DNA of 49,536 nt, counting the filler, from Jimgerdemannia flammicorona (lineage: Eukaryota): NCBI GenBank assembly GCA_003990765.1. It is 2 parts of 2 records of this genome, joined end to end, with 100 filler letters (N's around TTAATTAATTAA, not from the genome) between each part and the next. Parts side by side here need not be neighbours in the genome. Positions count along the whole stretch, not along the records: positions 24,823 to 49,536 come from RBNJ01000937.1; 1 more part is not named here. The stretch is one strand, 5' to 3'. Under the pieces are notes generated by a model that did not search any database, was not told the origin of the DNA, and saw only the letters and a list, made by a program, of their open reading frames with translations. Position 1 is the stretch's first letter, and every line of letters starts with the position of its first letter. This document shows, one piece after another, positions 7,416 through 44,164 of this stretch. The translations under genes and the position numbers were made by a program.

Positions 7416-7417
7416 AC

Positions 7418-7804
7418 CCCAAGGCCAAACCCTCAACCAATGCTTACCAAGAAGATATAGAGTATGACCTCTACAGTCTGGAGGATGAACTCATCAAATC
7501 TGGAAGAACACTGATATTCAGAACTAAACTAGCCATGCAGCCACCTCAAGGAACTTATATCCTACTGATCTCAAGGTCTGGACTTGCCAGACAAGGAGTA
7601 ACTATAAAAGGAGAAACCATAGACTCAGAATATATAGGTGAAATTAAGATCATTCTGCACAACAGTAGTATAGAATGGCACTAAATTCTTAGAGGACAGA
7701 AGATTGCTCAAGCAGTCTTCATGAAAGTCAAGACCCCCCAATTATAAGAAGTCTTCAAACTGACTGAAGGAATAAGGCAAGTTAAAGGATTTGGAAGCTC
7801 AGAC
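7418..7804 (+). pseudogene. dUTPase domain within Gypsy A pol
   Basis: One frame shows all five dUTPase motifs in order: EYDLY, SRSGLA, GETIDSEYIGEIKIIL, KIAQ, RQVKGFGSS. Only two stops, both TAA (7682, 7745). Confidence 0.88.
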
Positions 7805-12760: not shown

Positions 12761-14282
12761 TATAATGATGAGCTAGCAGAAATATATACCAAGTTACTAT
12801 CCAAATTAGTCACTATAATTTAGCTATATACTATATCAAGAATACTAGACAATCAGAACTGCCCTATTGTACCAGCTTATATAAATAATCTAGATAGCCA
12901 AAGAAGGAAACATTATGGGACATTTAAGGTCTCCTTGAGACATTGAAGTTCTCCTCAAGATATTGAAGGTCTTCTTGAGATATTGAAGATCTCTCTAAGA
13001 TTATAAAGATTACCTCTCCTTATAAATAGCAATTTATAGTTAGCCACATAGTAATCAGATTGCAATCAATTTGTATAAAATACCCCAGAGATAAGAGTAA
13101 ATAAACCTTAGTTCAAAAAGTTCAAAAGCAAAAGACAAGTCTGCCTACTATACTTCAAGAGATATATCTACTAAGAACTACTTAATCTTAAAGAAAAAGG
13201 ATTATAATACTTAGGAGAAATGCCCACTCTAAAGCCACTACTAGGAGATTGTGAGTTTACTTTCCAATATAGTCCACTTTCCAATACAAAGAAGTCCACT
13301 ATATTTTTAGTTCACTTGTCAGATAAGTCAGAAAAGAAGAGTCCAAAAGATTGAAATATAAATCAAGTAAAAGCCACTAATATTGTAAGCATTAGTTCTC
13401 TTTTCCCCACTCTGGTCTACTTTCTGATATAAAGAACAAGTTCAAGTTCAAGAGTATTAGCCACCCAAGTTCAAGTAAAGAACTTTGCTATCATTTGAAG
13501 AGAAATCTGCTACTTAAGAAATAAGCTGCCATTTTTAAGAAGTTCTTCTTATCATAAAGCCAGTCTACTAGATGTAACTTTGCAGTAAACTTATTCATAC
13601 AAATGAAGTCAGTCTTTGATATAACTTTGCCAAGAAAAGAATTCACACTATTTAAGAAGTCCACCAATTCAGGATGAATCTACATTATCTGCCATTTTCA
13701 AAAAGTCTGCCAGTATTCCAACACAAAGTCAATCGATTCAATATAATATAACAGTGGAGCCAGTCTATGATATAACCCTATATAAACAAAGCCAGTCTTT
13801 GATATAACTTTGCTAAAAATCTATACTATCTGAGTTATTAAGTTATCTGCCATTTGAGTTATCCACCAAAATGAGTTATCTGCCAAGTCATATAAGGAAA
13901 TCTGCTCACAAGATCATTATACTGAAATCACATAAGGAGCTCATTGTACTATATAGAGATCATCCTATATAAGGAATCTACTCTCACTATATAAGATCAT
14001 TATGCCAGAAATTGTATACTTTAAGAGATTATTGCACTATATAAAGATTGTCTGCTATTACTGATTTACATATTACCACTATACCTAAGAACTGTCTCAA
14101 TAAGAAAATCTGCTAGAATTGACCATTATATCTAGATTTAATTATTATACCACTAAATACTAATAAGAATACCTAGAATTATAGAATATTTTGTTACTTT
14201 TTAACAAAGTAACTGAGGGCTCAAGCTAAACTACATCAACTTTCAATCTTGTAATTTATCTCTATTGAGCTAGCATATTATA
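12761..14282 (+). mobile_element. Solo LTR related to the Gypsy A LTR, termini mutated to TATAAT...ATTATA
   Basis: Shares long blocks with 11215-12449 (TGTATAAAATACCCCAGAGA, TACTTAGGAGAAATGC, AAAGTAACTG.GGGCTCAAGC, CTCTATTGAGCT). No internal coding region; no clear TSD. Confidence 0.8.
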
Positions 14283-15340
14283 TTATATATAATTTAAAAT
14301 ACTAGAACAATTTAAAATATTAAAATATAAACTATTACAAATTTATAAATATATTTATAAAACTAAAAATGATTAAAATAATCTCTAAAATAATTAATAT
14401 TTTATACTATTAAAAAATTAACTTAAATTTTATTTTAGAAATCTAACCAGATTTTTTTTATAATTGATAAAGTAATAAAATATTTATTTAATTGTAATTA
14501 TTTTTAATAAATAATAGTTAAATATTTTTTAGATATATTAAAGAAATAATATAGAAATAGATCAAATAATAAAAATATTTAATATATTTTAATTTTTAGA
14601 ACTATATCTCTTTAAATAATTATTGAAATAAAATATAATCTAATTTTTCAAAAGATATTATATTTTTTTAATTTTTATTTTTATTATTATTATTATTTTT
14701 AATTATTAGTTAAAATATTATTCTAATATTGTTTTTATCTAGACTATTATAAATTTTTATGTTTGTAAAATTAATCATTACTATTCTAATATTTTATATA
14801 ACTCTATTAACCTTAATTATAGCTATAATATATCTTAATATACTTTCAAAATAACTCTAAATAGATAACTATATTGTAAAATTATTAGTTATCTAAAGTA
14901 GTAAAAAATACCTATACTCTTAGAGATTAGAAGGTAATTTGTATCTAAATTATAATTCCAAGCAGCAAAGCTATTCATCATTACCTGTCTATATAGTATC
15001 ATATAGTGAGTACTGAGTTCTTCAAATATGTCAGATTATCTTTAAGATATATCTCTTAGATTAACTATAAGTTTGTTATAAACAAGTTCTTATTAGAGTG
15101 TCTTTCCAAGGTCTTATAGTTCTCAAACTTCTTATCTTTAAACTATCTTATTATCTCTTAGATTACTTATGTAGAATTGAGTATAAGTGAACTGAGGGAA
15201 CTGACTTTATTTTGAAGAAAATGAGAGAGATATTTATACAAAATATAATTTAATAGTTGCTAAGATATAAAGCTAAATATAAATTCTAATAACCAAATAA
15301 ATAAGATACTAAAACACAGAAAACATCAGTCATAAGTACA
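14283..15340. other. Extremely AT-rich degenerate sequence (also 12450-12760)
   Basis: Long stretches almost free of C and G, with no ORFs; flanks the solo LTR on both sides. Confidence 0.75.
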
Positions 15341-15589: not shown

Positions 15590-18500
15590 ACATATTACCA
15601 ATTAGTGGGATGACATTATTGCCAATGATGTCATCATATTTGGCAATAGTGAGAAGGAGAGCAAGGAGATCTAGGGCTCTCTAATCTATGACATTCTCTT
15701 CTACAAAATAAGAGACAAATGTGGGGTCTTGGGGAGGTCTAATCTGGATACTGGAGCCTTAGAATACTGAGATCAATCCTTACAGAAATTGATCTGGATT
15801 GTTCTGGAGAATGGGATTCCAGAACTCTTCTACCTTATCACTATTAAGAGTGATAGTAGATTGGGCTTCTATAGCCATTATGGCCTCTAGTGCATTTGTA
15901 TGGCAGGCTGACAATTTCTTGAAGTCTGAGACTCTGGTATACTCTAAGTTGGAGATTGACAATAGTGCATATCTGAAGATCTGGTGAATCTTCTTAGCTT
16001 TCCTTATTTCATCTACATCTATGTGAGTGATATCTTGTATCTCTTGGAGACTAGCCTGAGAGAATTTTTAGTAGAGAAAGTTCTCTATTTCATATTTCTG
16101 CTATATTCAGAGACATTCAATAGTGATGGTATTCCTTATTTCTATTTCATAGTGGTAGAGAATAAAGTGATAAGAGTCACCAGTACCCAGGTTGAGGCTA
16201 GAAGTCTTTTTGGTGCAAGTCCTTATGGCTCTTCTGATGTCTTAGAATATCCTTTCTTAGACTTAGAGGTCTTGGTGGTTCCTGGACCTTGAGGTTTGGC
16301 AGATAGCAGACATTTTTTTTATAGTGAGTCTTTGAACTATTTTGGGATTTTGTGAGTCTTGTTTGAGTTGCTGCTGCTGCAGTTCCTTGGTCCTTCTTTT
16401 ATATTCCTTGAGATATCTATCTTATAGTAATGATGACTCATAGTTGATCATTATTGCTCATCATGTAGCCTGGGTGAGTTATGCCATATGATCTTCTTAT
16501 ACTTCATTCTGGTGACTTATAAGGAAAGGCTGTCTTCTGTAATGATGTCACCATTCTGAGATCACTGTTATATCTTCCTTCTAATAAGGATCTTCTCTTG
16601 AACATTCTTATTCATTGGTCCAGTCTGAAAAATTTGCTAATCCTATAATCTCTGGCAGGGAGTCAAAAAGTGGTATTTTAGGCTGACATCTTTCTTATAT
16701 ATTTTGGCATAATAGTGAATGGTCACTCTCTTCATATAGAGCAAGGGCCTAATTCTGATCTTGATCAATCAGATGATGGTTTGAACTCCTCTGGCTTCAA
16801 AAGTCTCATAGAAAAGTAGTTGCTAGTTCTGTATCTCTCAGAGAATAGTCCAGACAGATTGCCTACTGGTCATGAGACATGCTGTTATGATTCATAGTCT
16901 AGAACCTCATGGGTGGTCATTACCTTTTACTTCTCTTATATAGATTTATGGTACTTCTTGAGTCTGTTCCTGTATACTATAGTAGACAGTATAGTCTCTG
17001 AGAGTTTTCTAAGCCAGAAGTTAGTTCCCTTGATATCTTGCATATAGAAGGGTCCTTTCCATTTGAGCTTCAGTTTTTGTAATCATGAGGCTTTTATCAT
17101 ATTTTGATATAGTAGAACCTTTTCTCTAATTTGAATGGATTCTAGGGCCTTATGATTCTTTTCCACATACTTTTGTATTAGTACTTGTAACTTGATGATA
17201 TAATCTTCTGCCTTCTTCCTGATTTGGTATAGTCTCCAGATTTCTGAGTCAATCTATTGCCAAGTTAGGTCTAGATTTGTGGCTGAGGTTCTATCAGAAT
17301 CTTCTTCTCTGAAGAGTAGTTCTCTTGGGGTAAAGTGTGAACTCTGTGACTGTATATCTCAAAAGACAGAGAGGGCAGTTGAGAAGTAGTTATCCCAATT
17401 CTCATATATTTCTGAGATCTTGGCCAGAATGTTCTTGAGGTCTTTCTGTCTGTCCATTTCCTTGAGGGTGATATATAGTAGTCCTAATGTGCTGAATCTT
17501 ATATTTCTGATATATTATCTTATGGAATCTGTTGACAAATTCTGTACTATGGTCTGTAGTGATTTGCCTCAGTATCATGTAGTGGAAGATGATTTCTCAG
17601 TATAGGAAGTCAGCAATAGAGAGAGCATTGGCTTCTTATAATGCTCCTACTTCTATCTATTTGATAAAGAGGTCTACAATAACTATGATATAGCAGTTTC
17701 CTAATAGAGTTACTAGTAGTGGTCCAATGATGTCCATTATGATATAGTAGAAGGGGATAGATTTGATTCTTGATGACTCAGGTACCTGGTCTTGCTGATC
17801 TTATTTCTGCTTTGGTACTTATCATATCCTTTGACAAATTGGTGCAGGTTTTCTTCCATCTTAGGCCACTATATAGTTATTCTTGCCTTGTCATATGTAT
17901 TGATTCCTCTTAGATATCCTTGTTTATATACTTCCTTCATTACTTGATATTTCTTATGTTTAGATATTATAAGCTTTTTCCCTTTTCTGAGTATAATATT
18001 GTTTAGTTTGAATTATTTCCAAGTTTAATTGATAATAGTAATAGTCCTGAGTTTAAGGTGATTGGGCATCTTTTGCTGCTCAAGATAGCTAATTAATCTA
18101 TAGTATAACTCTTTATTCATTTTGGATAGTCTTGATGGGAGTATTTCGGGATATGTTTGAAAGTGCATCAGTATTGACATTAGTTCTTCCTGAGCAGTGT
18201 TTGACAGTACAGTCATACTCTTGCAGTCTGTAGATCCATCTGATATATATTTCTTTGGGATTCGGAGTGTAGAATAGCTAGGTGAGAGCAGAGTGGTCTG
18301 TTTGAATAGTGAAGTACTTCTCAGCTAGATAGTAGTGAAACTTGTCTACTGCCCAGACTACTGATAAGCATAACTTATAGTTCTGTTCTACTTCATAGAT
18401 ACCTCAGCTTATATAAGAGATGACATATTCATATCTATCTTTCTTCTGAGCTAGTATTGCTCCAAGTCCTATAGTATTTATATCTATCTGCAGGATAAAC

Positions 18501-18969
18501 TCTAGGTTCCAATCTGATCTTCTGTAGATGGGTGCTTGGAGCAACCTGGTCTTGAGTTCATTGAAGGTTTCTTGATATTCTTTGGTCCATTTGAATTTGG
18601 TCTCCTTCTTCAGTAGCTTGTAGATAGATACTACAATATTAGAGTATCCTTTGATAAATCTTCTGTAGTAGGAGGCTAGTCAAAGGAAGGCATGGACTTC
18701 TGTAGTTGTTCTTGGTCTTGGGTAGGCTGCAATAGCCTCAATATTCATGGGGTCCATGTGAATTCTAGTCTGGTTGATGATGTATCCTAGGTAGGTGATT
18801 TCTTGAGCTACATACAAACTTATACTTCTTGAGCTTGATGTAGAGGTCATACTCCTTGAGCTTCTTAAGGGCTAGCTGTATATGGTTGACATATTTCCAT
18901 GTAGTGTTGCTGAAGATGATCACATCATCAACATAGATAAAGAGCCATTTTCTGGTAGTATTCTTCATC
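15590..18969 (-). mobile_element. Ty3/Gypsy LTR retrotransposon B (RT C-part, RNase H, integrase, PPT, 3' LTR with internal ORF), decayed; interrupted by LINE copy 2
   Basis: YVDD at 18924-18935, GL.SYYRRFIKGY, RNase H, integrase (MDIIGPL, KWKGPFY), pol end VYRNRLKKYH near 16940. PPT AGAAGGAAGA at 16582-16573, then TATAAC (from TGTAAC). Far LTR end not resolved. Confidence 0.88.
15780..16313 (-). pseudogene. Accessory ORF (ORF-X family) inside the LTR of Gypsy B
   Basis: ATG at 16313 in a single frame: ...ERIF*DIRRAI...KYEIENFLY...ITHIDVDEIRKAKKIHQIFRYALLSISNLEYTRVSDFKKLS. The stops are consistent with C->T or G->A changes. TATAAAAG at 16403-16396. Confidence 0.65.
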
Positions 18970-21900
18970 ACAATTCACATTACACCAACTTCAAGCAATG
19001 GTTTTTGACACAACTCAGAGAAATGATACTACAAAAATATCATCAAGCAAGAGTTCTGACAGGCATGCTGGGTCAGGTGGACCTGGGGCTTTTGGCTGAT
19101 ATGTAGAATGTGGGGAGGGGTTATGGCCTAGGGATGGGGGCCTTTGGAGGGTTGAAGGATAGAGAGGGCTCTGGAGGTGGACCAGTGTCCAGTGGTGATG
19201 GGAGAAGGCCTGGCCCTCTAAGCTTTGTAGACAAGGTGAAGGAGAGTGGGTGGCTGGCTGGGTCTAGGGCTGGTGCTGCTGAGGGGAAGAACAAGGTGAG
19301 CCTTGGGAGGGGGGGAGATACTCAGGTGGGGGGTGGGAGCATAGGGGCTGGAGGTGCTATAGCTGGAGGTGGGACTGCTGATGGAAGTATGATGGGGAAT
19401 TAGGAAACAAAAAGAGATGTGACAGCTGCTAGCAAAGTGGGGCAGGGATTCCTAATTCAGAAGGGGGACCTGGCTGATGGTGTAATGGGGCTGGTAGTGG
19501 AACCATTACTCAGGAAATCGATCTTAGAGTTTGTGGTGACACTGAGCTTCTGGGGCTTAGCAGTGACAGTAAGGATGGTTCTGGGAATTATCTTGAAGCA
19601 GGTGGCTGAGACCACCTTGGTGAAGTTCCTAAAGGGTCTGAAAGGGATTGAGGTGGGCTTTGAGGATGCAGGTCTGCTGGAGGAAGTATTGAAGACTGGA
19701 GTGGCAGTAGAAGAAGTAGTGGTCCCTATGGTGAAGTGTTTGAGATGGGACCCCAGGGTAGTACAGCTGCTGGTAAAGAGGGTGCCTATAGTGATGACAG
19801 CAGAGACTAGGAGGAGGTGATGGCAGAGTATGGTGACATGGTCAATATTGGGTTCCAGATGTAGGAGGGGACTACTTTCAGAACTGGGGATATTGATGTC
19901 AGGATTAGGCTGGCTGAGAGGGAGGCCACAGAGAAGACAAGTGACTGGTCATTGGTGATGTTGTGGAGAGCCTTCATTTGCAAGGTGTTGAGGGTGAAAA
20001 GGAGTGAGGAGGAGGAGGAGGATCTGTTGGAAGCTCTAGAGGAGATGAGTGGAGCAGTAGAGTGGAGGGCAAAGGCTTGAAGGAGGTATGTGGAGTTGAT
20101 ACATTTGGAGATTGTAGAGGGGAAATATATCTGCATAAACAAGAGGTAGTGGGAGAGGGTCCAGGGGCACAAGAGGCAGAGAGAGCTATTGGTGAGTATG
20201 AAAGAAGAGGTAAAGAAGACTGCAAGTAGGACTGTGGAATCTGAGAGCACTGAAGCTATTGTCTGGACTAGCAAAGGGGGAGGGAATGTGGAGGAGAATC
20301 AGGAGGGAACTAGGAGGATACTGAGTAAGGACCCCTATACAGATGGTATGTTTGAAGTCTGGGAGCAGGATTTGGGGGACACTCACCCTCTTATCAGAAG
20401 GGGCCCAGCTGGAAAAAGAAGAGTGGCAGAGGATGTGCAGATGCAGGGTGCCCAGCAGATATACTTTGGAGTCCCTGACATAGCAAAAGGGGGACAGGTG
20501 GTGGCAGTTAGTGAGAACAAGTTGGTAAATATTCCAGAGGAGGAGTGGGATGAGTTGGCAAGTACTGGAGCTAATACTACAATGTTGGATGCTGGAAGGC
20601 CAGTGATGCCAGAAAGAAAGGAGGTGGGGAACCTACTGTGGATGCACTGTATGATGAATGACTTTGCAGCTGAGGAGCTGGGTGAAGTGGACCTGAGTGT
20701 GGTTCCTGAGGAGCATTGGGCCCAGATCCTACATGGGGATGGAGTAGTGGTGGCTCTAATAGGAGAGATGCTAGCAATTCTTCTGAAGGAGGAGGGGTAT
20801 GAGATTGATAAGGAGAGGGAGGCTGAGCTGGCTGTTGTGGCTGGGGAGCAGGCTGCCTACTGTTGGACAGAGCAGCATGGTCTGAAGCTCTGGCAGGAGG
20901 CCTGTCTGGAATATCATGAGGAATTTGAGGAGAAGGAGGATGGAGTGATGGCTGAACTTCTAGTAGGACTGGAGGTGAAGGAGGCTGCAGAGGAGGAATT
21001 GGCTGCAGAACATGCCTTGAATTTGATGCAGGAAGAGAGGAATGTAGATTTGTAGAATATATACTAGATCTTTCTTCTATACATTATTCCCAATAAATAG
21101 TACAACTAACATTTTTTCTATGAATGTGAATGGGTTAAGGGGATCTGGAAGGTGAAAGAATATTTTTACTTGGCTTAAGGGATTAGAGGCTGATCTCTTT
21201 CTGCTGCAGGATGTGTGCTGTAAGGATGAGAATGATCAGATGGAATGGACTAGAGAATGGGGAGGGGCTACAGCATAGATTGGCAAGGTGGCAATTTTGA
21301 CACAAGGTGGTAAAGGAGACCTAGGTGGAATCAGAAACTGGAGTGACTGTCTGGTATGGGGGGAATGACATCCATCTGAGTGGGAGCCAGTGAAAGTTGG
21401 CTCTTGCTACTGCCCAGCAGCTAGGGGTGAGAGGATTATATGAGTCAAGGGTCTGTTAGAAGAGGGTGCACTCTTGGAGGAAGGTATGGATGTTCTGAGA
21501 GGGGACTTCAATATGGTGTGGAATCCTCATTTAGATCAAATGGATAGAGGGAGAAATGCAGGTGGGAGGAGTGGTGGCCTAAATGCATGGGAGGAGATGG
21601 AGACCCTCAGCTCATTAGAGGATATGGGCAGAGCATAGTGGGGGGATAGGAGGATCTATACACACTGGGTGAATGGACTTGGTACATGGATTGACTGGAT
21701 CCTGACATCTGAATACTGGAGACTGAATGTTTGGAAGTTACTGGAGGTAGAGTATTGCTCATGGTCTGATCACTGGGGCATTTTGGGGCAGGGGTAGTTT
21801 GGGGGGAGTGGAGATAGACCCAGACATTAGCATCTTAACTCCTCTCTGCTAGCAGAGAAAGTTTGGTGGGACCCTTGGGTGGAGGACATCCAGACAGAGA

Positions 21901-24722
21901 TTGCTGACTGGAAATGTGAGGGTTTGCTGGTTGGTGTCCAATGGTTGAAGTTGAAAGAGACTGTAAGGGTTTATTGAGGAGGGGCTGGCAGAGAGGTAGG
22001 GAAGCAGAGAAGAAAAAGGGTGTGGTGTGCTCTCAACCAGTTGTTTAGATTGCAGATAGAATGGGCTGATTTATTAAACTCTGATGAGGTCATTGATTGG
22101 AGGTTGGTATGGACAAAATTGGAGATGACAGAGCTATAACAGGTGTTGAGAGAGGAGGAGGAGATGCATATGAGAGGAATGGTAGCTAGACTGCGGTGGC
22201 AGAGACTTGAGGAGGGGGAGAGGCCTACTAGGTACTTGTCATTACTTCTTTAGGCTAGGAGGATATAGCATTGTTGGGATAGGGTCCTGGATGCAGATGG
22301 AGAAATGGTACATGGTATGCATCAGATCTTGGGAGTACTGAAGGAGCAGTTGTGAGGTCTGTAGAGTGAGGAGAAAGGAGGGATTGATGAGGAGGCAATT
22401 GGTGACATACTTGAGGATTGGAAACCACTACTGGTAGAGGGCCTGGATGATTTGATCCTACCAGTCTAAGAGGAGGAGATTCAGAGAGTCCTTACTGAAA
22501 CCAAGCTTGGGATGGTACTAGGTGAGGATGGGTTACCTTGGGACTTTTGAAAGAAGATGGTGAAGGTGCCTGGGGTTTTAGGGGAGATGGCCACTCTCTT
22601 GACCATGTTCTTCTGAATGGCAAGTAGATTGGCAAGCAGGACTTGGGGTTGGTGGCCTTGTTGTACAAAGATAAGGAGAGGAGGGAAGACTAGAAGAACT
22701 GGAGACCAATTATACTTCTGGATATGGACAGGAAGATGGTGACCAAGGTGATCATGGTGAGGTTACAGAGGATTGCCCAACAGGTGCTGGGTGAGGAGCA
22801 GTGGGGCTTTGTTGGAGGCCAGCTTATTTGAGATGGTACAGCCTGGGTCTATGGCATCATTGAAGAAGCATGGGCCTGTGTATTGGATGGCAGACTGGTC
22901 TTCTTAGACCAGGAGAAGGCCTATGACTACATTCAGCAGATATGGCTAGGCAAGGTGCTGGATAGAATTGATGTTCCACTATATTTTTGGGGTTCTGTGT
23001 TGAGTTTATTAGAGGGTAGTTGAGCAGCACTATTGTGTAATAGATACCAGGGTCTGGTATTTCTCTTGGAGAGAGGAGTTCCTCAGAGGGACCTACTGTC
23101 CCCTATCCTTTATGCCCTCTTATTAGAGCTTTGATAGATAGGATATGATGGAAGGTAGCAGGGCTCTCTGTGTATAGTGTGGTGTGGAAGGTGGGGGGGG
23201 CCTTTGCAGATGATATGGTAGTTGGTCTTAGCTCAGTGGCTGATGTTGCAGTACTTTAGAAGACAGTGGAATGGTATGAGGTACATTCTGGGGTGAAACT
23301 CAACTGGTATAAGTGTGAGACAATGGTACTGGGGAACAGGCTGGTGGGTGGGGACATCATTGGAACAATTGTCCCTATAGGGGAGGTAGTGAGGTATTTG
23401 GGCATCTTCCTTTATATGTATGGTTCTGTCCTACTACAAGAGTGGTGGAAAAGGAGAGTGGCCATTTGAGGGGAGATGCTTAGGGGCTGGGGAGGTCACC
23501 ACATCTCCCTAGCTAGCTGGGTGTTGATTCTGAATATCTACTGGTTCCCTAAGCTATGGTATATTGCTTATCACTTGGATTTTCCAGCTTGGGTGGTGAA
23601 GAGACTGATGAAGCTGGCTAGAGACTGGATTTGGACAGGGAAGTGGGCCCAGATTGGTTGGGACACCCTAGCTATGCCAGTGGTTCAGGGAGGGCTAGGT
23701 CTAGTGGACCTTCCTAAGAGGCTGCACTGCTTACAAGCATGGTGGTTGAAAAGAGCTATTGAGTTACAGGGGAGGGGATGGATGCTGCTGATGTAGAAGG
23801 TGTGAGAGATGAGTTCTCCCCATAGAGATCCTCAGAAGATTTGCTATCTCTGGTAGGGCTGGATAGTAGCTGCTGGCTATAGTATAAGAGTTTCTGGTGG
23901 AGAGTGGTAGATGGAGCACACCACATAGGCCTCCACTGGCATAACAATGAGAGGGAGATGTTGTGGGGTCCAGCTATGTAGCAGTGGGACAGATTGCTTC
24001 TGGGGGGTGTTCTGCTTACTGAGTTTAATATTAGACATGGTGTCAAGTATCATCAGGGTCTTGGTCAGGATCTTTGGTCAAGTGGGTGGCAGGTGGTGGG
24101 GATTGGAGAGGAGTGGGACTGGGCAGGAGTCTGGTCATGGAGTGCTGTGGTGCAGAAATGGCTTCCTCCCAAGTTCTGAGTGGTCTAGTAGCAGATGCTG
24201 CAAAGGAATATCATGTTGAATTTCTGTGCTGGACATCTGGTGGATGGTGGCCATTATGATTGTAAGGAGTGTTACAATGTCAGACAAGATGGGGGTTATA
24301 TATAGACACCAGAATATTGTTTGGGGTAGTGTGAGGTTTTGGGGGACTTTTGGATAGCCATAGGTGACAGGCTGGGTGTGGCAAAGAGGTTGGATGGTGA
24401 GAGGGGTCACTGAGAGGATTTGAAAGCTAGGTTGGTGGGTGTGGGCAATGGGTGGCTCACTGTAGAGTGGGTTTTAGCAGTATAGGTAGGGCTGGCAGAA
24501 CATTGGCTCTTTGTTTTTGAGGAGGAGTAACAGATGGGAATGCAGGAGAAGTTATTGAGATGAGAGGGGTTGATGAGTGATCTGCTGACTAGATGGTGGA
24601 TTAGTTGGGGTCCCCAGGGTGGGTGACATCACTATCTGGTGGAAGGGATATGTGAACAAAGTAGTGGGCAGGTAGTGATGGTTAATGACAAAGTGGTCTT
24701 TCATTGGGAGGGGGTGGAGGGG
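18970..24722 (+). mobile_element. L1/Tx1-clade LINE copy 2, 5'-complete, decayed; 3' end lost in the gap
   Basis: Colinear with copy 1 (ORF1 18998-21055; ORF2 from ~21093 with EN and RT motifs). Inserted in the RT of Gypsy B. Confidence 0.93.
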
Positions 24723-24822
24723 NNNNNNNNNNNNNNNNNNNNNNNNNNNNNNNNNNNNNNNNNNNNTTAATTAATTAANNNNNNNNNNNNNNNNNNNNNN
24801 NNNNNNNNNNNNNNNNNNNNNN
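24723..24822. other. Assembly gap / artificial linker N44-TTAATTAATTAA-N44
   Basis: Exactly 100 bp with a six-frame stop linker in the middle. Confidence 0.97.
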
Positions 24823-26852
24823 TTTTAAAATAAATCTTCCATCATCCGAAACAGTTGCTTCAGCCGACTGAAGAAAAAAAGGATGCATACTACAGCAAAC
24901 TCCAGCGCGCGCTGGATCATTACAAATGTTGAGTTCCAACATGTACAGATGTCCAATATAAGCTCTTTCGGGGCTAAACTGATTGCCCTACACTGCACAG
25001 CGAATTTGTCTCGTTATTGTGGGGACGATCGGACTGACACAACCAGTTTGCGCAGCTTGGAAATTATACTCAGGGCCCCTCCTCTCTCGGATATTTTGTC
25101 TATGTGCGTAAGATAGTCCTGAACAGCGAGGTTCAGTACGTGGGCCTGGCATCGCATATGGCAGCTTTCTGCACTGAAGGCCACATTTTCCTGTTTGAGG
25201 CTGGCCGCTAAACCTTAGAAAAATGTTGAGTTGTTTGTGGCATTGTCTGTTGTAATGGCCAAAATCTGTACTTGAAATATTTGGTTGACAAGTTTATGTG
25301 AAAATAAGTAACCAATAAAATCTGGTTTGGTTTAGGACCTCCCTCAAAACGCTGACCTGACGGCAAGCTCCCCTTTTTTACCTTAGTAGTGATCCCAAAC
25401 TCCTGGATATAACTAATAAAAGCATCTGCGATATTGTCTCCAGAATGAGGGCCAGCAAGTTTGACGAAGTCAAGGGTGAGAGATTTAAGCTACCAATTGA
25501 GGTCAATCCAATGACCGGTAATGCCCAGAAATGAAATTGCATTGGGGGATATCCATGTGTCAATCGTAAACGAAATTTTGCCTGCCGAATTCTGCTTATT
25601 GAATGTGAGGTTAAATTGGTGAGCTCTTTTGTATAATTCAGCTTGCAAAGGTCATGGTGCTGCCCTTATTTTACCTGAAGTATCTGGCAGAGATTGTCGT
25701 ACTCCTTCCTATAGGCCTCCAGGACATCTTTGCAAATAGTAACGGCACTTGGCAAATATAAATCATGCTTGAGGAGGCCAAAGATGCTATGCAATTGATC
25801 ACTCTCGATGGTTGTGAATGGCTGGTCTGTGCACATAATCTAGCAAATGAGCCGATTTCGAAATTCTGCCAAAGAGTATGGCTAAAATTTTTGATTAAAT
25901 GGCGTTGTTGGTACAGAAATGGTCAGGCAAATCAGATAAACGTACCCACCACAGCTTGGATGTCGATTTTATTTGTCTCCATATTCTTTTTGATTTTGTC
26001 AGAGTGCTTGTCTTTTATGTGTCGATTCATATTCGAAGTCATACTCCCAAGCATTTTGAACTTCTGGCTGGTGCAGTTCCTGGGGGTGGATGAAACAATA
26101 TCATGTGTGTGTCAAACAATATCATGTGTATATCAAACAAAGTGTCAATAGGTGCGTCTTAATTTTTTACCTGCAATAATTACAAACAACATCATCTCCT
26201 ATCTTAGTACAATGTTGCCAGATTTCGGAGTGAGGATTGCATGGAAGGTGTGGAACTATCAGGGATGTTTGACTTGAAGCATCATCGGTACTGTGAACTG
26301 TTGAAGACTGATCTGTCGACATGTGTATTTGCATGTTTGCGTATGCATGTGTATGCGTGTGTGTGTATGCATGTGTGTGTGTTGTGTTGTGGACGCATCC
26401 GGCATGTGAGTCATGTGGAGGATTTGGATTGGAGGATTCGGTTGAAGGATTTGGATGAGGATTCGGATTGAAGGATTCGAATTGGAGGATTCAAATTGGA
26501 GGATTCGAATTGGAGGATTCGAATTGAGTGATTCGGATTGAGTGATTCAGATTGAGTAATTCGGATTGAGTAATTTGGATTGAGTGGTTCGGATTGGAGT
26601 GGTTCAGATGGGTGATTCGGATGGGTGATTCGGATGGGGCAATTTGGATGGGGCGATTCGGATTGAGTGATTCGGATTGAGTGATTCGGATTGGGGTAGT
26701 TCGGATGGGTGATTCGGATGGGGCAATTCGGATGGGGTAATTCGGATTAAATCCGAGTTGATCCGGATGGCTTCGGATTTGAGATTCGAATCAAACCGTC
26801 ATGTGATGAATCGAATCCGGATTTGATTCGAATTGACTCGTTCGGAGCACTA
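24823..26852 (-). mobile_element. hAT (Ac-like) DNA transposon, 5' part, copy 2 (less decayed), with intron-containing transposase pseudogene
   Basis: Minus-strand exons give a BED-like segment (TSNMNRHIKDKH), DQPFTTIES, FTIDTWISPN, ILAITTDNATNN, RCQAHVLNLAVQ and CWNSTFVMIQRAL, separated by GT..AG introns. Terminus TAGTGCTCCGAACGAG at 26852; inserted in the RNase H of Gypsy C. Confidence 0.92.
26420..26840. repeat. hAT subterminal tandem array, ~14-bp unit GATTCGGATTGAGT / GATTCGGATGGG
   Basis: More than 20 direct units adjacent to the transposon terminus. Confidence 0.92.
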
Positions 26853-29083
26853 CTCTGATCAAATGGTGACCATACCTAGAAGGAGCACACTTCACTATAT
26901 TGACTGACCACAAGTCATTAGTCAACATCAAGACACAGGCTACCCTTTCCCGAAAGCAAGCCAGATGGATGAAAGTCCTCACCAACTTTGACTACGAAAT
27001 CCAGTACTGCCCTGGTAAGGAAAATATTGTTGCTGATGCAATCTTCAGACCCCCAATTGAAGAAGTTATTCAAACTCTGACCTTGGTCACCAACAGTATC
27101 ATGGAACAAATCATCACAGCATGTGTCGATGATAAAGAAGCTCAAGTACTTCGAGAAATCCTGAACAGTGATGATGCTGACAAGTATACCCGGTACAACC
27201 AATACCAACTCAAGAACAATGCTATCTACTACAAGGACAGACTGTATGTTCCAAATAACCGAGACCTCCAAAGGACTATCCTATTTGAATGTCATGATGC
27301 ATCTATAGCTGGACATTTAGAATTTGATAAATGTTATAAAGTTATCTCCTGAAACTTCTATTGGCCCCACATGGCAGATCAGCTCAAAATCTACATTACT
27401 TCCTGTGATACCTGCCAATGAAACAAGTCCTCAACACTAGCAAAACCCAGCTTACTCCACCCTATCCCAGTATTATCTGCAAATTGAGAACAAATCTCTA
27501 TGGACTTTATTGTACAACTACCCCAAACCAAGAATGGAAAAAATGCAATTGTTGTCTTTATGGACTACCTCAGCAAATAAGCCCACTTTGTGCCTACTAC
27601 ATACTACTACTGCAACAGCACCAGACATAGCCACACTCTTGTTTGACAACATCTTCTGCTATCATGGTCTCCCTAAGATCATTGTTAGTGACCAGGATCC
27701 AAAATTCACTAGCCATTTTTGGAAAGCCCTCCATGCACACCTTGGAACAAAACTTGCACTATCCACAGCCTTTTACCCAGAAACTGATGGCCAAACTGAA
27801 AGAATGAACCGAACTCTGGAACAAATACTAAGAAACTATATTTCCTACAGATAAGATGACTGATACATATGAACACCTCACTGTAGTCGAGTTTGCCTAT
27901 AATAATAGCAAGCAAGCCTCTCTCGGAATGACCCCATTCTTTGCCAACACTGGACAAAACCCAAACACCCCTTTGACACTTATCCGAACCACTGAAGAAC
28001 CCTCTACAGTTAAAGCTGTTGAAGAATTCTTACTCTGAATGTATAATTTAAGCCAGATTGCCATCAAGAATTTATTGCGAGCTCAAGAACAACAATCACA
28101 GTATGTTAACCAATACCGCCAAGAAGAAACTTTTGATATTGGAGAAAAAGTCCTACTAGACATCAGAGGATACCGAGTTGACAACCTCAAGCACAGATCA
28201 TCTACAAAGCTAAACAGCAAGTTCATTGGACCATTTGAAGTCATTGCATAAGTCTCCCCAACCTCCTACAAACTAGTGCTACCAGATACCATTAAGATTC
28301 ACTCAGTCTTTAATGTCTAACGTCTCAAGCAATACAATGACAATGATGACAAGCTATTTCCAAACCAGACTACCAAACCACCTGCACCTGTCATTATTAA
28401 TGACCAAGAAGAGTATGAAGTTGAACAAATCCTCAACAAATGTGGCAACAAGAACCATCCTGAGTACCTTGTCAAATGGAAAGATTACTCGATCCATGAT
28501 GCAATCTGGGAACCCAAGACCAATCTTCAGAATGCTACCAACCTAGTTCAGGAATATGATTCCTTGAACAACTAGAACCAAATACTCTGCACCTATCTAT
28601 ACATACTATATATTACCCTCCTGAACATTATAACTATCATGAACCAAATCAAGAACTCAGCAAAACAAGACAAGAATACCGACTCTCTGGAAAAATAGCA
28701 AAACTGAAAGCAAGCCTATTCTCTCTGTACCACTGGTGGGAAATAAGGCATAGATATTTAAGAAGATTCCTTAGAGGAAATTCTCCAGCAGTAAATGACG
28801 TCAGAATCACTTCTAACACATGGCATTGAACATATGACCCTTTAACATGTAAATCCAATGCGTTAGGCAACTATACTACAAGCATGCTACTTTCTGAGAA
28901 AAATGGACTTTACTGAACTTTTAATCTTCCAAATGGTATAACAATACTAGAACAAAATTAGAAGGCTCTGATGAGGATGTCGAAAGCTAAGAAGGGGAGA
29001 GTTGTAAGCACACAACCTCCAAGCCACTGAAATTACATGTGATCTCTGAACAAATCTGAAAATCACCTGCTTGATTACAAAGC

Positions 29084-29189
29084 TGAGTCAAACCGAAGTC
29101 ACAGTACACAAAGCTGAGTCAATATGAAGTCACGGAATACAAGATTTACACAAATAGAATCTTACCAATCAGGACTAAATGCATATATA
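29084..29189 (+). promoter_or_regulatory. LTR promoter: two TGAGTCA (Gcn4/AP-1-type) sites, CCAAT, TATATA
   Basis: TGAGTCA at 29084 and 29115 within a ~31-bp direct repeat; CCAAT at 29165; TATATA at 29184. Confidence 0.55.
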
Positions 29190-29258
29190 CCGAGCACCGA
29201 GATGCGTCGAATCAGAGAACCAAAATAAACAACAACTACAACTTCCAAACACACAAAT

Positions 29259-30023
29259 ATGACCACTAAGATCTACAACCGTATCCATGCTGATATTTGG
29301 AATGCCATTGTCAACCGAGCCACACCCCCTCTGCCCCTTATGAATATCCATAGTCTAGCACCCCTCTACTTTGTGGAAGCCCGATGGAATGCTCTGAACA
29401 TGCTTAGTGAGGCCCACCGAATCGGACAAATCTCAAGCTACTATCAGATCGGCCGCCTCCTGGAAGACATGGTTGAACACTACCATAATACAAACATTAC
29501 CCAGATGTCTCAACACTAGAAGCTCATTGCCCGCAAATATTGAGAACTCTTCTATAAGTATAGCATCATTATTCCCTGCCTCCGAGTTACCACCAGTGAA
29601 ATGGTTACTATCCTATCCTATGGCCAAATTGACGATATGATACAAGAACTCAACCACAAGTACCTTGAGTATGTTGAAACTATAGACAGAACCTTCCTAC
29701 ACTCCAATGATCACATCTTGCAAATGCTCCAAGTTGGATATGCCATGAAGAATATCTACAATATAATCCACTTCAATGAAGATGAAGTAGAAGATAATGA
29801 TCCCTCTGATACTGACATGACCTCTAGCCAAGGATCTCTGCCAACCCTGATCACTCTGCCAACCTTGCCAATGAACTTACAACAGTTCATAACAGCATAT
29901 GAGACTTATTGGGACAATGACCACTGGTACAAATACCAACCTGCATTCACCCCTGATTACTTCAACTACAATGAAGAGACTGGAGAACACAACCTGTACC
30001 TCCAGACAATCCTCGAGACTTGA
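29259..30023 (+). pseudogene. Accessory ORF (ORF-X family, 254 codons) inside the LTR of Gypsy C
   Basis: ORFs 29259..29519 and 29601..30023 share one frame, broken only by TAG 29517 and TGA 29541 (each one C->T from CAG or CGA). AATAAA near 30105. Confidence 0.75.
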
Positions 30024-30468
30024 ACACACAAGAACAATTCTGAATACTTCTCCACAATATCTCTTTACACAACTACTCTTAGTATAGCAATATCATGAAT
30101 AGCAAATAAACCTATTCAATAACCCACAAACCACTCTTAAGTAAACCCACTCCCTGTTAGGTCCCACTCCTAACCCTGTCATGAAATTTCCTAATTGGGT
30201 ATTGTCTGCAGCGATACACCAGTTCAACTAAGCTGGTCTTAGTTTCTTGAACTTCCTGAAATATGAAAAATCCAGAATATCCAGAACTAGTCCGAAAAAG
30301 GACTTTGGTTGAGACGTCAACCCAATCTTGAAATCAATAAGCATAGAGGATGTACTCCATATGAAATTGATCTTGACCATAAGAAAACGGTCTTCCAGAA
30401 TATCCAGAACCTCCAGAAAACCCTTCCAGAACTATGTAATGGTTACCCTAAAAAGCAACCCTCTTACA

Positions 30469-32492
30469 GGAATAGCGAGGGTTCATCAGTGGTCAGTTGA
30501 TTTGAGATGGGACAGCCTGGGTTCATGGTGTGATTGAAGGTGCCCAGGTGACAGGAGTGGATGGCAGATTGGTATTTCTGGACCAAGAGAAGGCCTATGA
30601 TAGAGTGCAGAGGATATGGCTGGAGAGTGTACTGAAATGGATTGGTATCTCCCTGGGGTTCCGAGGATCATTGATCAGTCTCTTAGAGGACAGTTAGGTG
30701 GCATTGGTCATTAATGGCCACAGGGGGGTGACCTTTCTCCTGGGCCATAGGGTACCGCAAGGGGATCCCTTGTCACCCATATTGTATGTCCTTTCCCTGG
30801 AGCCACTGCTGGATAGAATTCGGCATCAGATTGGCAGTTTGGACATTTTAGAGGTTAACTGGAAGGTGGGGGCCTTTGCTGATAATATGGTGGTCAGGCT
30901 GGGCTTCTTGGTAGATGTGGGTGAGCTACAGCGGACTGTGGAATAATATGAGAGGAGTTCTGGCACTAAGCTAAACTGGCACAAGTGTGAGACACTGGTG
31001 CTGGATGCTGGAATTGTTAGTGGTGATATCATTGGGTCAGTGGTATCAGCTGGTGCACCAGTTCGTTACTTAGAGATATACTTCTCGATGTTCGGCTCTC
31101 TTCTTCCCCAGGCATGGTGAGACTGTAAACTTCTAGAGTGGGATAACATTTTGCTGCATTAGGGAGGCTGACATATGTCACTAGCTGGAAGGGTAATGGT
31201 GTTGAATATATACTAGATGCCAAAGCTATGGTATGTTGGGTATTATTTGGATTTCCTAACCTGAGTGGTGAAGGGGCTGTTGAAGATGATGAGGTCATGG
31301 ATTTGGGGAGGGTGGCAAAGCCAGGTTGGTTGGGAGGTGCTCACACTGCTCTTGGAGAGAGGTGGGCTGGGCTTAGTGGACTTTACTAAGTGGCTTCTTT
31401 GTCTGAGAGCCTGGTGGCTGTGAAGGATAAGCAAGCTTAGGGATTAGGAGTAGGTGCCACTTATGTAGCGATTGTGAGAGGTTCAGTACTCCCCATGTGG
31501 TGGCTCTAGTGACCTGCTTACGATAGTGACCATGGAGGAGAGCAAGAGGATATAGTTTATAGGCTTCTAGTGGAGGGTAGTGGATGGTACTAAGAAAATT
31601 GGGCTTCGGTGGCAAGGTGATGAAGCTGAGGAGATTTGGGGCCCACGGATGTGGTGGTGGGACAGACTTCTTCTGGGTGGCATTCTGGTGGAGTACTTTT
31701 AGCTTGGTGAGGGTCTGGAGTGTCTGTGAGGCCTAGGTGGAGACCTTTGACTGGAAGCCTAGCAGAGGGTTGGAATTGGTGAGGAGTGGGATTGGAATGG
31801 CCTCTGGCTTTGGAGTACCCAGGTGAGGCAGTGGCTGCCCCCCAAGTTCTGGGTGGTGTGGTGGTGGGTCCTATGGCAGAATGTGATATTGAACTATCAG
31901 TCGGGATACTTGGTAGATGGTGGGGTATTCAAGTACAAGAATTGTTTCAATATTGGTCAGGAGGGAGGAGTAGTCTAAATGTCTGAACATTGACTTGGTG
32001 AGTATGAGGTTTTGGAGGAGTTCTGGAGATATATTATAGACTGAGTGGGGCTGGGTATCTTGGTGGGAGAGGGAGGGGGGAGATGGGGAGAGCTCCGCCA
32101 GTGGCTGGTGGGTGGGGTCAGGGACGAATGGCTGACCCTTGGTTGGGCTTTGACTATGTGGGTTGGGTTGACCAGGCACTGGGTTCATATCTTTGATGAG
32201 GGGTGTCAGATCAGGGTTGGTGACAAGGTGGCCCATTGGGAATGGTTGCTATTGGACATTTTGAATAGCTGGTGGTAAGGCTGAGGAATGGGTGGGAGGT
32301 ACTGTAGAGGTCTGATGCAATATATATCCTGGAAGAGTAGTGGGAGAATTCAGGTAGTCAGTAATTGGGTAATACTTAGGCAGGGAGAGATTGAAGGGGG
32401 GAAGTTAGGTCCCCGGGGTATTGGTTGAGGGTGGGGATGATGTTGTATTGTTAACACTATAGACATCAGTAATAAAGAGCAGTCCAAGAGAC

Positions 32493-32556
<64 letters not shown>
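30469..32556 (+). mobile_element. L1/Tx1-clade LINE copy 3 (diverged subfamily), 3' half with poly(A) tail
   Basis: DQEKAYDRV, VPQGDPLSPILY and AFADN RT motifs; AATAAA at 32471; A61 tract at 32496-32556. Confidence 0.9.
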
Positions 32557-36500: not shown

Positions 36501-39365
36501 CAAGAACATTCTTGGGCGCGGGGGCGCAGTTTCGCCCAGAGTTTGATACAAATGCCGTATTGGGGGCGTTGGTAAGCCCTGGTGTGGGTGAGTTGCCATT
36601 TTGATTTATTGATGCTGAAGATGCATACAAGTGATATGAGGAAGGACTCTAGTTATCAGCCCCAATTCCCGTCCTTGAACCAACTGTGTTGTGCTTGGCA
36701 GATGCATCTTCATCGAAGTTCAGACATAAGGCTACTAGCACACCTCTTCCCAGCAGTATCAGGACACCCTTCAACCAAAAACAGATGTCAGGTGTGGTTT
36801 GTTTGTTATTCTATGCTTCAATTTATGTTTCACCCCCGAGTATTCGCTAAAACTCTTGAACCCATCTATTTATATTTCAATCGCAACTAGCTCCCATCAC
36901 AGTCGAGTCTCCTTTGGACGTCTCGTTTGCGCGAAACTTGAGTGCGGCTGCGGGGCGGATTGCGGGCAGCGCTAATAGGTCACGTTTGACACTCGTGTCT
37001 CCTGGGAATGGGGAACCAGAAGGCGATGAAAACGAGGTGGGTTAAAAACTTGGTTGCTGTATCTTCTGAGTTGCTTGTTGTTTCTCGAGCCTTTATGCTC
37101 ACGCGCTCTTGTTGCCGCCGGACGGCCATTCGTATTCATGGCCAACAGGAGCCTGACTTAACAGTAAATGTATCATCAACGATTTTGCGCGGTGTGATGG
37201 TTTATGTGAGCCAACACTTGTCGGTAAGAATCACTTGACATTTCGTTTGAAAACGAGAATCCGTGTAATCCGAAAACTCAAGCTCCGTTTATCTGCTACG
37301 ATATCATCGTACGTTGTGCACGGAAATCATGGACATTCTTTCAGCCTCGGCGCAACGAACTGTTGGAAATGGCGGCGTTGTTAGGTGCCCGTTTTGTGTG
37401 GACATTTGATGACTCGGTGACACATTTTGTGCATCATATCCTTTATTTGATAGCATGTCGAGAATTGTGAGAGATTGAGGAAAATGTGATGATATCATAA
37501 GGCTTTGGGAAAACAGTACTAGCTGTGAGACAATTTCAGCGTCGGGCAATTTTTGTTATCCTCAACCAAGCATTTCGCAACCTGTACAGAGTACCCGAGC
37601 CAACGAAACGTTCAAGGACTTCAAGATTGCGAGACTGCGGGGCAAGCACATTGTTTCACCTCTTTGGTTGCAACAAGTGGGTACAGACAACTTGTTTATA
37701 GTGTCATATCTAACAATTCCTTTGTCCGATGTTTTTACATTTTGGATCGCTTGGCGCATTAGATACCGAACTGATTGTATGTTTCTATTTTCCTGTCTTT
37801 GCTTTTGCACCTCAGTGCAAGCGTGCCAATTGCCGGCTCGAAGAAAGATACTTTCCGCACACCCTACAACCGGGCAAGTTGCTCTCTTTGTCGCTGCCGC
37901 GATCACCTACGGTCATAGCCCATCACACATCCGTCATGAATAAGGAGAACCTGCACCCAAACTCGACCGTGTCGGATGCTGAAGTTACAGCGGCTGCTCC
38001 CGTGAACAAGAATCTCGGCGACGGTACGGCCACACGCTCCCCAAGCAAGTGTGATGTCACTCCTCCATGTTCGCCTTCGACACCGCAGGAGGAACCGCTA
38101 CAACAGGACGAACCGCTACAACAGGAGGAACCACTACAACAGGAGGAACCACTACAGCAGGAGGAGTCGCTACAGCAGGAAGGACTGCTACAACTACAGC
38201 AGGAGGAGCCACTACAGCAGGGGGGTCCGCTGCAGCAGGAGGAGCCGCTGGAGAGACGATTCAAAGTGGACTACACCGCGGCGGTGACGGAGTTAATTGA
38301 GAAGACAAGTCTTGGCATGGTGAGCAAGAATGCGATGATTTATCAATTTTTTATTATGTAAAAGTTGGATGTCAAGTTTGGACGTATGTCTGATAGTGAT
38401 TGGTTGGAAACGTATCGTTTAGCCGCGGCGGCGTGGGCGTGGTACTATTGCTATCCGACGCTCGGTAAGTCCAAGGAATTGCTTGCACGGTCATTACATA
38501 TTGCGTAACGAAGTATGAGAGAATATTTATTTACACTACACTACACTATACACAGCTGAACAATCAAGTAACCGGAAACGATTTGGCAACGAGGGAAGGC
38601 AATGAGGATAATGTAAGCGTTCGATTCGTATATAATAGCAAATTTTGTTTACTTGTTGACAATGATCCAGGAGGTTCATCATCACGCTTGTGGGCAAATG
38701 CATTGCGATATAGCTCAGTTGATCTGATTGCAAGCACATTATACCTTCAGCTTCATCCTGAAAAACCCAATGCACCCCGACCAATGGATTTTGACCAACT
38801 CCCACAACACTCGCAACCGGACGTTGGTGTGGTTTACGACGACCCTGAGGCGCGGTGCGAAAAACGCAAGCTTCTTGACCGACTACAGCGCAACAAAAAA
38901 AGGCGAATCGCGTCTGAAGGCGAGGACGAACAAGACGCATTGGAAGGCAATGGAGTCGCAGGCAACAATGCGGTTGAAGTAGAGATGGTCGACAACGTCA
39001 ACCTTATTCGCTCTGATAGCACCGTGACTATGACTACCCTAGGCAGGTCGGCATCCACGATGTCGACGTGGTCGAACTTGCCTGCTGGACAAGTACCTCC
39101 AGAACAACCGATGCAGAAGGAATCGAATCTTGGGGCGGCGTTGAAAGTGAATAGAATTTTGTCGGACCTTGAGATAACGACGGACAATACGTCGGCAGGC
39201 AATATCATGATCAAGGGGCGCAAACCTCTGAAATTGGGCGGTGGTGGGAAGAATGCGGCTGTAAGGGAATGCGCCCCACCGCTTGCTCGGAGCAAGGGAC
39301 GTCGCGAAAATAGCAAGCCTGTGCCATCCAGTGTGATGGAGCTGGCTGGATCACCCACGTATTGA
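32817..39365 (+). CDS. DPB11: Multi-BRCT replication/checkpoint scaffold, TOPBP1/Dpb11/Rad4(Cut5) homolog; more than 20 GT-AG introns
   Basis: Spliced translation shows six BRCT-like repeats (ICCSGF..MGGDWHPNLTRDVTHLIA..SEKYK; LGGNYHADLSKATTHLIA..GKKYEFAVKW; YLDGCTIFL; LFANLNF; IGISGFEGLER..LGAEFSERFNRRHTHLIC; ILRGVMVYVS..HIVSPLWL) and the motif VVYDDPEAR. Internal exon boundaries were not all resolved; the stop at 39365 is likely. Confidence 0.88.
38086..38250 (+). repeat. Coding 18-bp minisatellite, about 9 x QEEPLQ
   Basis: CAGGAGGAACCRCTACAR units in frame within the TOPBP1-homolog exon. Confidence 0.92.
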
Positions 39366-39712
39366 ATGTTGGTCACGGTTTTATGATCATAGATTCTTCG
39401 GTGAGCGATTGTGGTGGTATTCTGTAGTATTTTTCATTGCTCCTCGATTTACTCCCCTTCCTCCTTTCTTCCTGCCTTTTTACCCCTTTTCTATTTGTTT
39501 GTTTTTCCAATGTATAGTATCTTGCAACTTTGTACAGTGGTATGCATCGACAATAAAAGCGCATCTTTGTTCGCTTTACTAGTTACTTTTTGTGGCATGA
39601 AACAGATCTCGGTGTCGTCATCTTTTGGCATTCAATTGGTCAGTTGTCCTTGCTTTTTGCCCGAAAGGGAATCCAAGCGAGCATTTTTTTATCGCTCGAC
39701 GCGTCTCGTTCC

Positions 39713-44164
<4,452 letters not shown>

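Follow-up and report, generated by a model that had tools for sequence, protein, structure and literature searches.

In a 49,536-nucleotide stretch of the Jimgerdemannia flammicorona genome assembly GCA_003990765.1 (hereafter the window; filler is included in its length, and positions 24,823 to 49,536 come from RBNJ01000937.1), the remnant of a Gypsy chromovirus ends in a segment with the marks of an unusually long 3' long terminal repeat (LTR), and this segment holds an open reading frame (ORF), which we call ORF-X. As the frame is beyond chance expectation, has homologous proteins and shows sense codons in its relatives where the window copy has stops, we take it to be a real coding sequence at the level of the family. 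Our favoured explanation, to which we give an even chance, is that ORF-X serves a chromovirus family as a lineage-specific accessory gene, situated inside the element's LTR, and that the copy in the window is dead.

A chromovirus remnant and the reading frame in its terminal segment

The window is eukaryotic, transposon-rich DNA, and upstream of ORF-X a series of pol domains can be followed (Table 1).

Table 1. The ORF-X segment, the chromovirus remnant and their immediate flanks, in window coordinates.
Feature	Coordinates	Strand	Basis or remark
End of unrelated transposon with 14-nt subterminal tandem repeats	24972..26852	+	~86% direct repeat of 5670-7415
pol remnant: end of RNase H domain and start of integrase zinc-binding domain	26870..27349	+	Pfam RT_RNaseH PF17917, E 3.7e-08; Integrase_H2C2 PF17921, E 1.7e-4 (below cut-off)
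pol remnant: integrase core (rve)	27441..27851	+	PF00665, E 5.9e-05 (below cut-off); frame differs from that of 26870..27349
pol remnant: Tf2-1-like integrase SH3 domain (SH3_Tf2-1)	28039..28248	+	PF24626, E 6.3e-05 (below cut-off)
Chromodomain at integrase C-terminus	28321..28572	+	Pfam Chromo PF00385, E 2.4e-15, 56.6 bits (cut-off 25.1)
Polypurine tract AGAAGGGGAGAG	28990..29001	+	Direct reading; 12 nt, all purine; ~420 nt past the chromodomain, one base (T) before the LTR
3' LTR as bounded by TGTAAG...CTTACA	29003..30468	+	1466 bp in the window copy
Tandem duplication	29077..29133	+	31-nt spacing; one TGAGTCA per unit (29084, 29115)
Promoter-like CCAAT (29165) and TATATA (29184)	29165..29189	+	Motif reading only
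ORF-X, read through two internal stops	29259..30023	+	254 codons and stop; relatives P0003 (86%) and P0002 (61%)
Internal stop TAG	29517..29519	+	Gln codon in relatives; C at all covered depth in three runs
Internal stop TGA	29541..29543	+	Arg in P0003; mostly C in runs
Breakpoint relative to other copies	30016..30018	+	Loose ends in runs; ORF side and downstream side continue into other sequence elsewhere
AATAAA, poly(A)-signal-like, 3' of ORF-X	30105..30110	+	Motif reading only
3' flank: LINE-type reverse transcriptase hosting the insertion	30469..30943	+	RVT_1 at 30698-30943, E 1.7e-06 (just below cut-off)

A chromodomain at the integrase's C-terminus is the hallmark of chromoviruses, and in this remnant RNase H precedes the integrase on one strand and the chromodomain comes last, as in that group. 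The pieces between 26870 and 28572, all on the plus strand, are in order but spread over three reading frames, which marks them as the degenerate 3' end of a Gypsy chromovirus; the degeneracy of the copy also explains why several of the Pfam matches remain below cut-off. Upstream of RNase H an unrelated transposon, whose end lies at 26852/26853, truncates the element, with two runs of 44 Ns further left. The gag, protease, reverse transcriptase, primer-binding site (PBS) and 5' LTR of the ORF-X chromovirus are absent from the window, an absence that belongs to this truncated copy and has no bearing on the family. A PBS-like string taken from another copy matched the window three times at three mismatches, not significantly more than the 1.3 matches expected, and a tRNA-gene search of the window found none.

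The structural hallmarks of an LTR are present in the segment: a polypurine tract adjoins it, its ends are TG...CA, and TGTAAG at 29003, which occurs nowhere else between 29003 and 30468, forms an exact 6-bp terminal inverted repeat with CTTACA at 30463-30468. The features on which the initial annotation had based its reading (polypurine tract, TGTAAG...CTTACA ends, two TGAGTCA sites, CCAAT, TATATA, CA-rich leader and AATAAA) were all found where it had placed them, the CA-rich leader lying between the TATATA at 29184 and the start of ORF-X; a further AATAAA is present at 29224. ORF-X begins 256 nt inside the segment so bounded and, in the window copy, also ends inside it. From this arrangement of motifs it is probable that ORF-X lies within the LTR, not merely beside it.

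Other copies were sought in public sequencing runs. Four runs from four studies (X1, X2, X3 and X8) aligned to the segment at a likeness of at least 80%, with 2746, 347, 302 and 404 contigs, respectively, and thus with many diverged copies in each; the comparison covers these four, the remaining runs (X4-X7 and X9-X20) having small shares. In no listed run did the share of the segment's sampled words exceed 26%, so that none resembles the source sample. None of the listed runs was identified as RNA; X3 and X8 are RNA by guess only, and their depth profiles are not taken here as evidence of transcription. At the left end of the segment, one X3 contig (record 17) spans the junction from the 3' region of pol into the LTR, and a second, deeper one (record 18) begins to match at exactly 29003, preceded by 174 unlike letters. 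At the right end, contigs leave the segment at 30466-30469 into differing sequences, and one of these has, after a few bases, a PBS-like string starting with TGG, as primer-binding sites do. Summed depth rises from ~250 over 28400-28938 to ~961 over 29016-30016 in X1 (~3.8-fold) and from ~21 to ~70 over the same intervals in X2 (~3.3-fold), a step at ~29000 that fits an LTR part occurring more than once per element.

The frame of ORF-X opens at 29259, the first ATG after an in-frame stop at 29226, and is as the initial annotation had described it, with 254 codons to 30023 and just two internal stops, TAG at 29517 and TGA at 29541. When the 1466-nt LTR was shuffled 2000 times with its dinucleotides preserved and read in six frames, a frame of 264 codons (stop to stop) with no more than two internal stops was matched in 0.15% of the shuffles (p ~0.0015), and an uninterrupted stretch of 159 codons in 0.35%. 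Both stops had been ascribed to single C-to-T changes. This agrees with the sense codons (with C) that the relatives have at both positions, but the TGA at 29541 turned up in one contig of another copy as well. At 29517, C accounts for all covered depth (1908.4 of 1908.4 in X1, over 44 contigs; 27.3 of 27.3 in X2; 5.64 of 5.64 in X3). At 29541 it makes up 214 of 255.4 in X1 and, in X2, 23.8 of 23.8, but the one X3 contig covering this position (depth 2.3) has the T of the window; X8 has no cover at either position. By these reads no copy but that of the window shows the first stop, and the second occurs as a minority variant. One X8 contig (depth 368.7) skips 104 nt inside ORF-X, at 29853-29958, with CT..AT ends; this is no canonical intron, and probably a deletion variant.

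Protein searches were made with ORF-X read through and X at both stops (P0001). They yielded two relatives: P0002, of 247 residues and encoded on a 998-bp contig, the single match of similar length in a library of 5.8 billion proteins; and P0003, a metagenome protein of 128 residues on a 1180-bp contig, named 'hypothetical protein' at its source, the sole match among shorter proteins. An exhaustive HMMER scan of 1.84 billion representatives with a profile of P0001 and P0002 recovered P0002 and P0003 only, and the protein searches found neither longer or fused forms of the ORF-X protein nor any non-transposon homologue. P0003 is identical to ORF-X at 110 of 128 positions (86%), shares its Met-Thr-Thr start, and has Gln and Arg where the window copy has stops. 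Residue 1 of P0002 aligns to M115 of ORF-X, and over residues 115-253 the two are identical at 85 and similar at 112 of 139 positions (61% identity), with one in-frame gap of 2 residues; P0002 is without a stop across its 247 residues and runs ~110 residues past the stop of ORF-X. Conservation is uneven: the block KYQPAFTPDYFNYNE-TGEHNLYLQT is almost invariant, and the acidic linker is variable and contains the only gap. As a separate matter, the exact 20-mer at 30190-30209 had no match in viral contigs and one in genome contigs (L001), which showed no other similarity to the window or the proteins and was set aside as a chance match.

The comparison with other copies also bears on where ORF-X ends. 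Four X2 contigs and one X8 contig (with 255 further letters) match the window to 30018 and then diverge, and contigs in X2 (two) and X3 (with 173 letters before) match only from 30016 on. Read by eye in the ORF frame, the consensus after 30018 gives Glu-Pro-Thr-Thr-Pro-Pro-Pro-Glu-Tyr, which resembles Glu-Gln-Pro-Thr-Thr-Pro-Leu-Ser-Glu-Tyr of P0002, and tblastn found no trace of the last ~100 residues of P0002 anywhere in the window. The loose ends at 30016-30018 and the missing C-terminal residues point to a deletion in the window copy; we infer the direction, and the change at ~30017 is probably a deletion here and not an insertion elsewhere. The stop at 30021 is then probably an accident of the deletion junction, and the natural ORF probably has ~360 codons or more. 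Thus, of the self-contained 254-codon unit that the initial annotation had proposed, a genuine frame between promoter-like motifs and an AATAAA stands, but 254 codons is a truncated length. Of the 18 residues at which the window copy differs from P0003, 14 are explained by a T or A in the window where C or G would give the residue of the relative, a pattern that fits decay by C-to-T and G-to-A transitions. The ORF-X copy of the window is dead and apparently 3'-truncated.

Counter-evidence and competing explanations

Several observations weigh against the favoured explanation. Self-blastn found no second copy of 29003-30468 in the window, which we ascribe to the element being cut by the transposon end and the N runs; neither a 5' LTR nor a solo LTR carrying ORF-X was seen, and no run contig spans the whole LTR. 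The loose ends of run contigs are often mere diverged homologous sequence (as at 28902, 28955 and 30046), which makes the boundary evidence soft, and their use as hard boundaries was rejected because several are plainly of this kind. Over 30094-30401, depth exceeds that of the ORF part 2-3-fold in X1 and X2 and by a factor of more than 100 in X3 and X8. The relatives number just two in libraries of 5.8 and 1.84 billion proteins, and both are fragments on ~1-kb contigs; as these libraries hold open frames only, the intactness of the relatives is partly an effect of the search. The N-terminal part of P0002, given the start at M115, may be broken or off the contig, and DNA of relatives was found neither with profile A1 (metagenome, genome and viral contigs) nor with profile A2 (metagenome contigs). 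Structure prediction was uninformative: AlphaFold2, run on a three-sequence alignment, placed helices over residues 3-141 at a mean predicted local distance difference test score (pLDDT) of 34.8, and the ESM Atlas model of P0002 has a pLDDT of 0.39, so that modelling of the repaired protein, as the initial annotation had suggested, gave no usable fold. Finally, if ORF-X belonged to the R region, gag would come after it on the genomic RNA, an awkward position for the translation of gag.

The greater depth at the right of the segment may come from the ORF part being absent from many LTRs in this family or in sister families, which we think fairly likely, or else from a short true LTR (~30046-30468). 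The latter would make ORF-X an ordinary additional ORF, sense-oriented and located between pol and the 3' LTR, the deletion at ~30017 having taken the real polypurine tract and the start of the LTR. A right part 2-3 times deeper than the ORF part is the ratio of LTR to internal region expected in the DNA-type runs X1 and X2, the excess in X3 and X8 points the same way, a deletion at 30016-30018 is indicated, and according to a review of such ORFs their most frequent place is between pol and the 3' LTR (PMC7264820). However, TGTAAG, the exact inverted match of CTTACA, is found within the segment only at 29003, one base past a run of 12 purines, and neither the window nor the consensus of the loose ends from other copies shows a purine tract or matching TG start at 30017-30100. 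Moreover, depth rises 3-4 fold at ~29000 relative to the 3' region of pol, contigs switch context exactly at 29003, and the enhancer-like and TATA motifs are placed as in a U3 region. We therefore consider an ORF between pol and a short LTR unlikely.

To an equally low degree we believe that ORF-X is a passenger, i.e. a fragment captured from a host gene or a once-coding piece in the LTR that has no function for the element and appears conserved through young copies or constraint on cis elements. An orphan family with no domain, a poor fold prediction, just two relatives and a visibly decaying window copy would suit such an origin. Against it stands the outcome of a simulation of neutral drift, in which the 139 aligned codons of the window were mutated, with transition/transversion ratios of 2, 4 and 8, until residue identity had fallen to 61%: 2.6-2.9 stops were expected in 139 codons and ~5% of the runs were stop-free, whereas P0002 is open over 247, and 112 similar positions were observed against 101-102 (standard deviation 3.5) under neutrality (p 0.002-0.005), the substitutions thus being more conservative than neutral. 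The single indel in 139 aligned residues keeps the frame, and no non-transposon homologue appeared in the protein searches. As far as the aligned sequences go, this argues for purifying selection on ORF-X in an active lineage.

That ORF-X is a chance open frame in a stop-poor LTR, for which speak an A/C-rich strand (513 A and 380 C among 1466 bases) and shuffled open stretches that average 89 codons, is very hard to credit, as the frame was matched in just 0.15-0.35% of shuffles, two independent homologous proteins keep its frame and start, and P0002, at 61%, is no near-identical recent copy.

Other features of the window

The transposon end that cuts the chromovirus has a second copy in the window: 5670-7415 and 24972-26852 are direct repeats, ~86% alike, with 14-nt subterminal tandem repeats, and both end in ...GAGCACTA. 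The element is possibly CACTA-like. In run X3 another LTR copy appears to carry the reverse complement of this terminus as an insertion, with the loose end at 30162; the transposon thus seems to have been mobile into the ORF-X LTR family. An open stretch at 7400-7681 (+), which follows the first transposon end immediately and lies in decayed, AT-rich DNA, has a clear dUTPase domain (Pfam E 2.3e-15).

Long interspersed nuclear element (LINE)-type elements with Exo_endo_phos and RVT_1 domains occupy 1-5600 (-), 19000-24700 (+) and 30469-32500 (+), the last being the 3' flank of the LTR, and have a GC skew of ~0.45-0.5 toward G on the apparent sense strand. The two 44-N runs, at 24723-24766 and 24779-24822, lie just left of the transposon end, and because of them the join of the LINE with the downstream sequence is not trustworthy. 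A second Gypsy-type remnant, with reverse transcriptase and RNase H, is found at 18407-18974 (-) (RVT_1 E 4.4e-07; RT_RNaseH_2 E 6.2e-13), and tblastn detected no ORF-X-like sequence near it. A weak Parvo_NS1 match of the superfamily 3 helicase type at 15783-16067 (-) (E 1.9e-4; 21 bits, the cut-off being 20) lies in a very AT-rich region, with a GC content of 16% in 14001-15000. Finally, the region 37479-41972 (+) holds a host gene with domains of leucyl-tRNA synthetase (tRNA-synt_1; editing domain E 3.5e-29), which is split over frames by apparent short introns and contains an 18-nt tandem repeat at 38076-38267.

The predicted protein, its possible role and its relation to known systems

The initial annotation had not recognised ORF-X as gag, pol or env, a view that is borne out: no Pfam family reached cut-off for the ORF-X proteins, with DUF5338 appearing below it only, and hydrophobic segments are lacking. 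The highest mean hydropathy over 19 residues (Kyte-Doolittle) is 1.28 for P0001, 0.97 for P0002 and 0.57 for P0003, so that the transmembrane segment or signal peptide of env-like or sag-like ORFs is missing; with 0-1 cysteines per protein (P0001-P0003) there is no CCHC zinc knuckle, nor was a gag domain found. The best match in a sequence search of the PDB had an E of 0.18, and the ESM Atlas gave no usable match for P0002 and just low-sharing matches for P0003. P0002 is acidic (46 Asp and Glu against 10 Lys and Arg) and rich in aromatic residues (36 Phe, Trp and Tyr among 247), and it has an aromatic module twice, as QFITTYETYW...FTPDYF and as QFIPTYYYLNEN...FIDNYF, with 12 of 27 positions identical (E 0.001, in a small comparison). 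The ORF-X protein may thus be pictured as an orphan, soluble and strongly acidic protein whose N-terminal part of ~140 residues would be helical and would be followed by an acidic linker; ORF-X would hold one aromatic-rich module (QFIT-YETYW...FTPDYFNYNE), and its intact relatives a second copy of it. A helical domain with a tail rich in acidic and aromatic residues would be in keeping with an activator or a factor directed to chromatin, which is conjecture on our part.

If ORF-X is an accessory gene in the LTR, the active lineage would keep it open, and the window copy would have acquired two stops by decay and lost its C-terminal third through the deletion at ~30017. Transcription from the TATA at 29184 would give an mRNA with its first AUG at 29259 and its end at the poly(A) signal of the LTR, and each LTR, a solo LTR included, would work as a small gene on its own. 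For the genomic RNA, transcription would begin at a second site lying more downstream, which would place the ORF in U3, or else the ORF would form part of a very long R; we weakly favour U3. We would guess that the protein is a trans-acting factor that aids expression of the family or blunts its silencing, and a role in anti-silencing or transactivation is pure conjecture, since no family, fold or motif was matched. The more specific proposal, that the LTR is a complete RNA polymerase II gene (with enhancer repeats and a TATA, an ORF that opens at the first AUG and has 360 or more codons, and a poly(A) signal) for a trans-acting acidic protein serving the whole family, we put forward as a doubtful one.

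Among fungal chromoviruses, Boty is reported to have an antisense internal ORF, brtn. More generally, additional ORFs of LTR retrotransposons are placed by PMC7264820 in the internal region, in most cases after pol and before the 3' LTR, with either orientation, and are described there as having no homologues outside the elements. Like these ORFs (sense ORFs of env-like type, and the antisense ORFs of Grande, RIRE2 and Retand; PMC7264820), and like Boty brtn, ORF-X is an apparently family-conserved orphan unrelated to gag and pol in a Ty3/Gypsy host. Unlike them, many of which are antisense, it lies past the polypurine tract, inside the segment bounded as the LTR, in sense and with promoter-like motifs of its own, in a comparison of kind and position, not of sequences. 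Provided that the LTR starts at 29003, ORF-X is outside the internal region, and it would be an additional ORF in kind but in another location.

A parallel in position is sag of mouse mammary tumour virus, a gene for a superantigen that lies in U3 of the retroviral LTR and encodes a membrane glycoprotein of exogenous or endogenous mouse retroviruses. The frame of sag is contained in the LTR, as that of ORF-X probably is, and hence stands at both ends of the provirus, but ORF-X is acidic, has no hydrophobic segment and belongs to a chromovirus without env, and it may lie in U3 or in R. Lentiviral nef and foamy-virus bel/bet are trans-acting accessory genes that overlap the 3' LTR; as ORF-X may be, they are accessory coding sequences reaching U3, but they start internally and only overlap it, whereas the start of ORF-X lies 256 nt into the LTR. 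Cassandra LTRs contain a 5S rRNA-like sequence and retrozyme LTRs hammerhead ribozymes, which are functional units embedded in the LTR and duplicated with it; there, the cargo is an RNA or a promoter, not a protein-coding frame. In a limited full-text literature search, covering sources in part, we found no report of a retrotransposon with a conserved protein-coding frame inside its LTR.

If the placement in the LTR is right, each insertion doubles the dosage of the gene, solo LTRs preserve the gene after LTR-LTR recombination, and the length and promoter architecture of the LTR are coupled to coding constraint. Should the LTR moreover be a gene that serves its family, each insertion would leave two copies of ORF-X and each solo LTR one, for instance boosting LTR transcription or countering genome defence; ORF-X would then be the retrotransposon counterpart of the LTR-borne accessory genes of retroviruses, a 'public good' that outlives its source elements. 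The case bears on the evolution of shared trans-acting factors in transposon families and on the annotation of 'non-coding' LTRs, and it offers a testable candidate for a transposon-encoded regulator in an apparently fungal genome with C-to-T decay.

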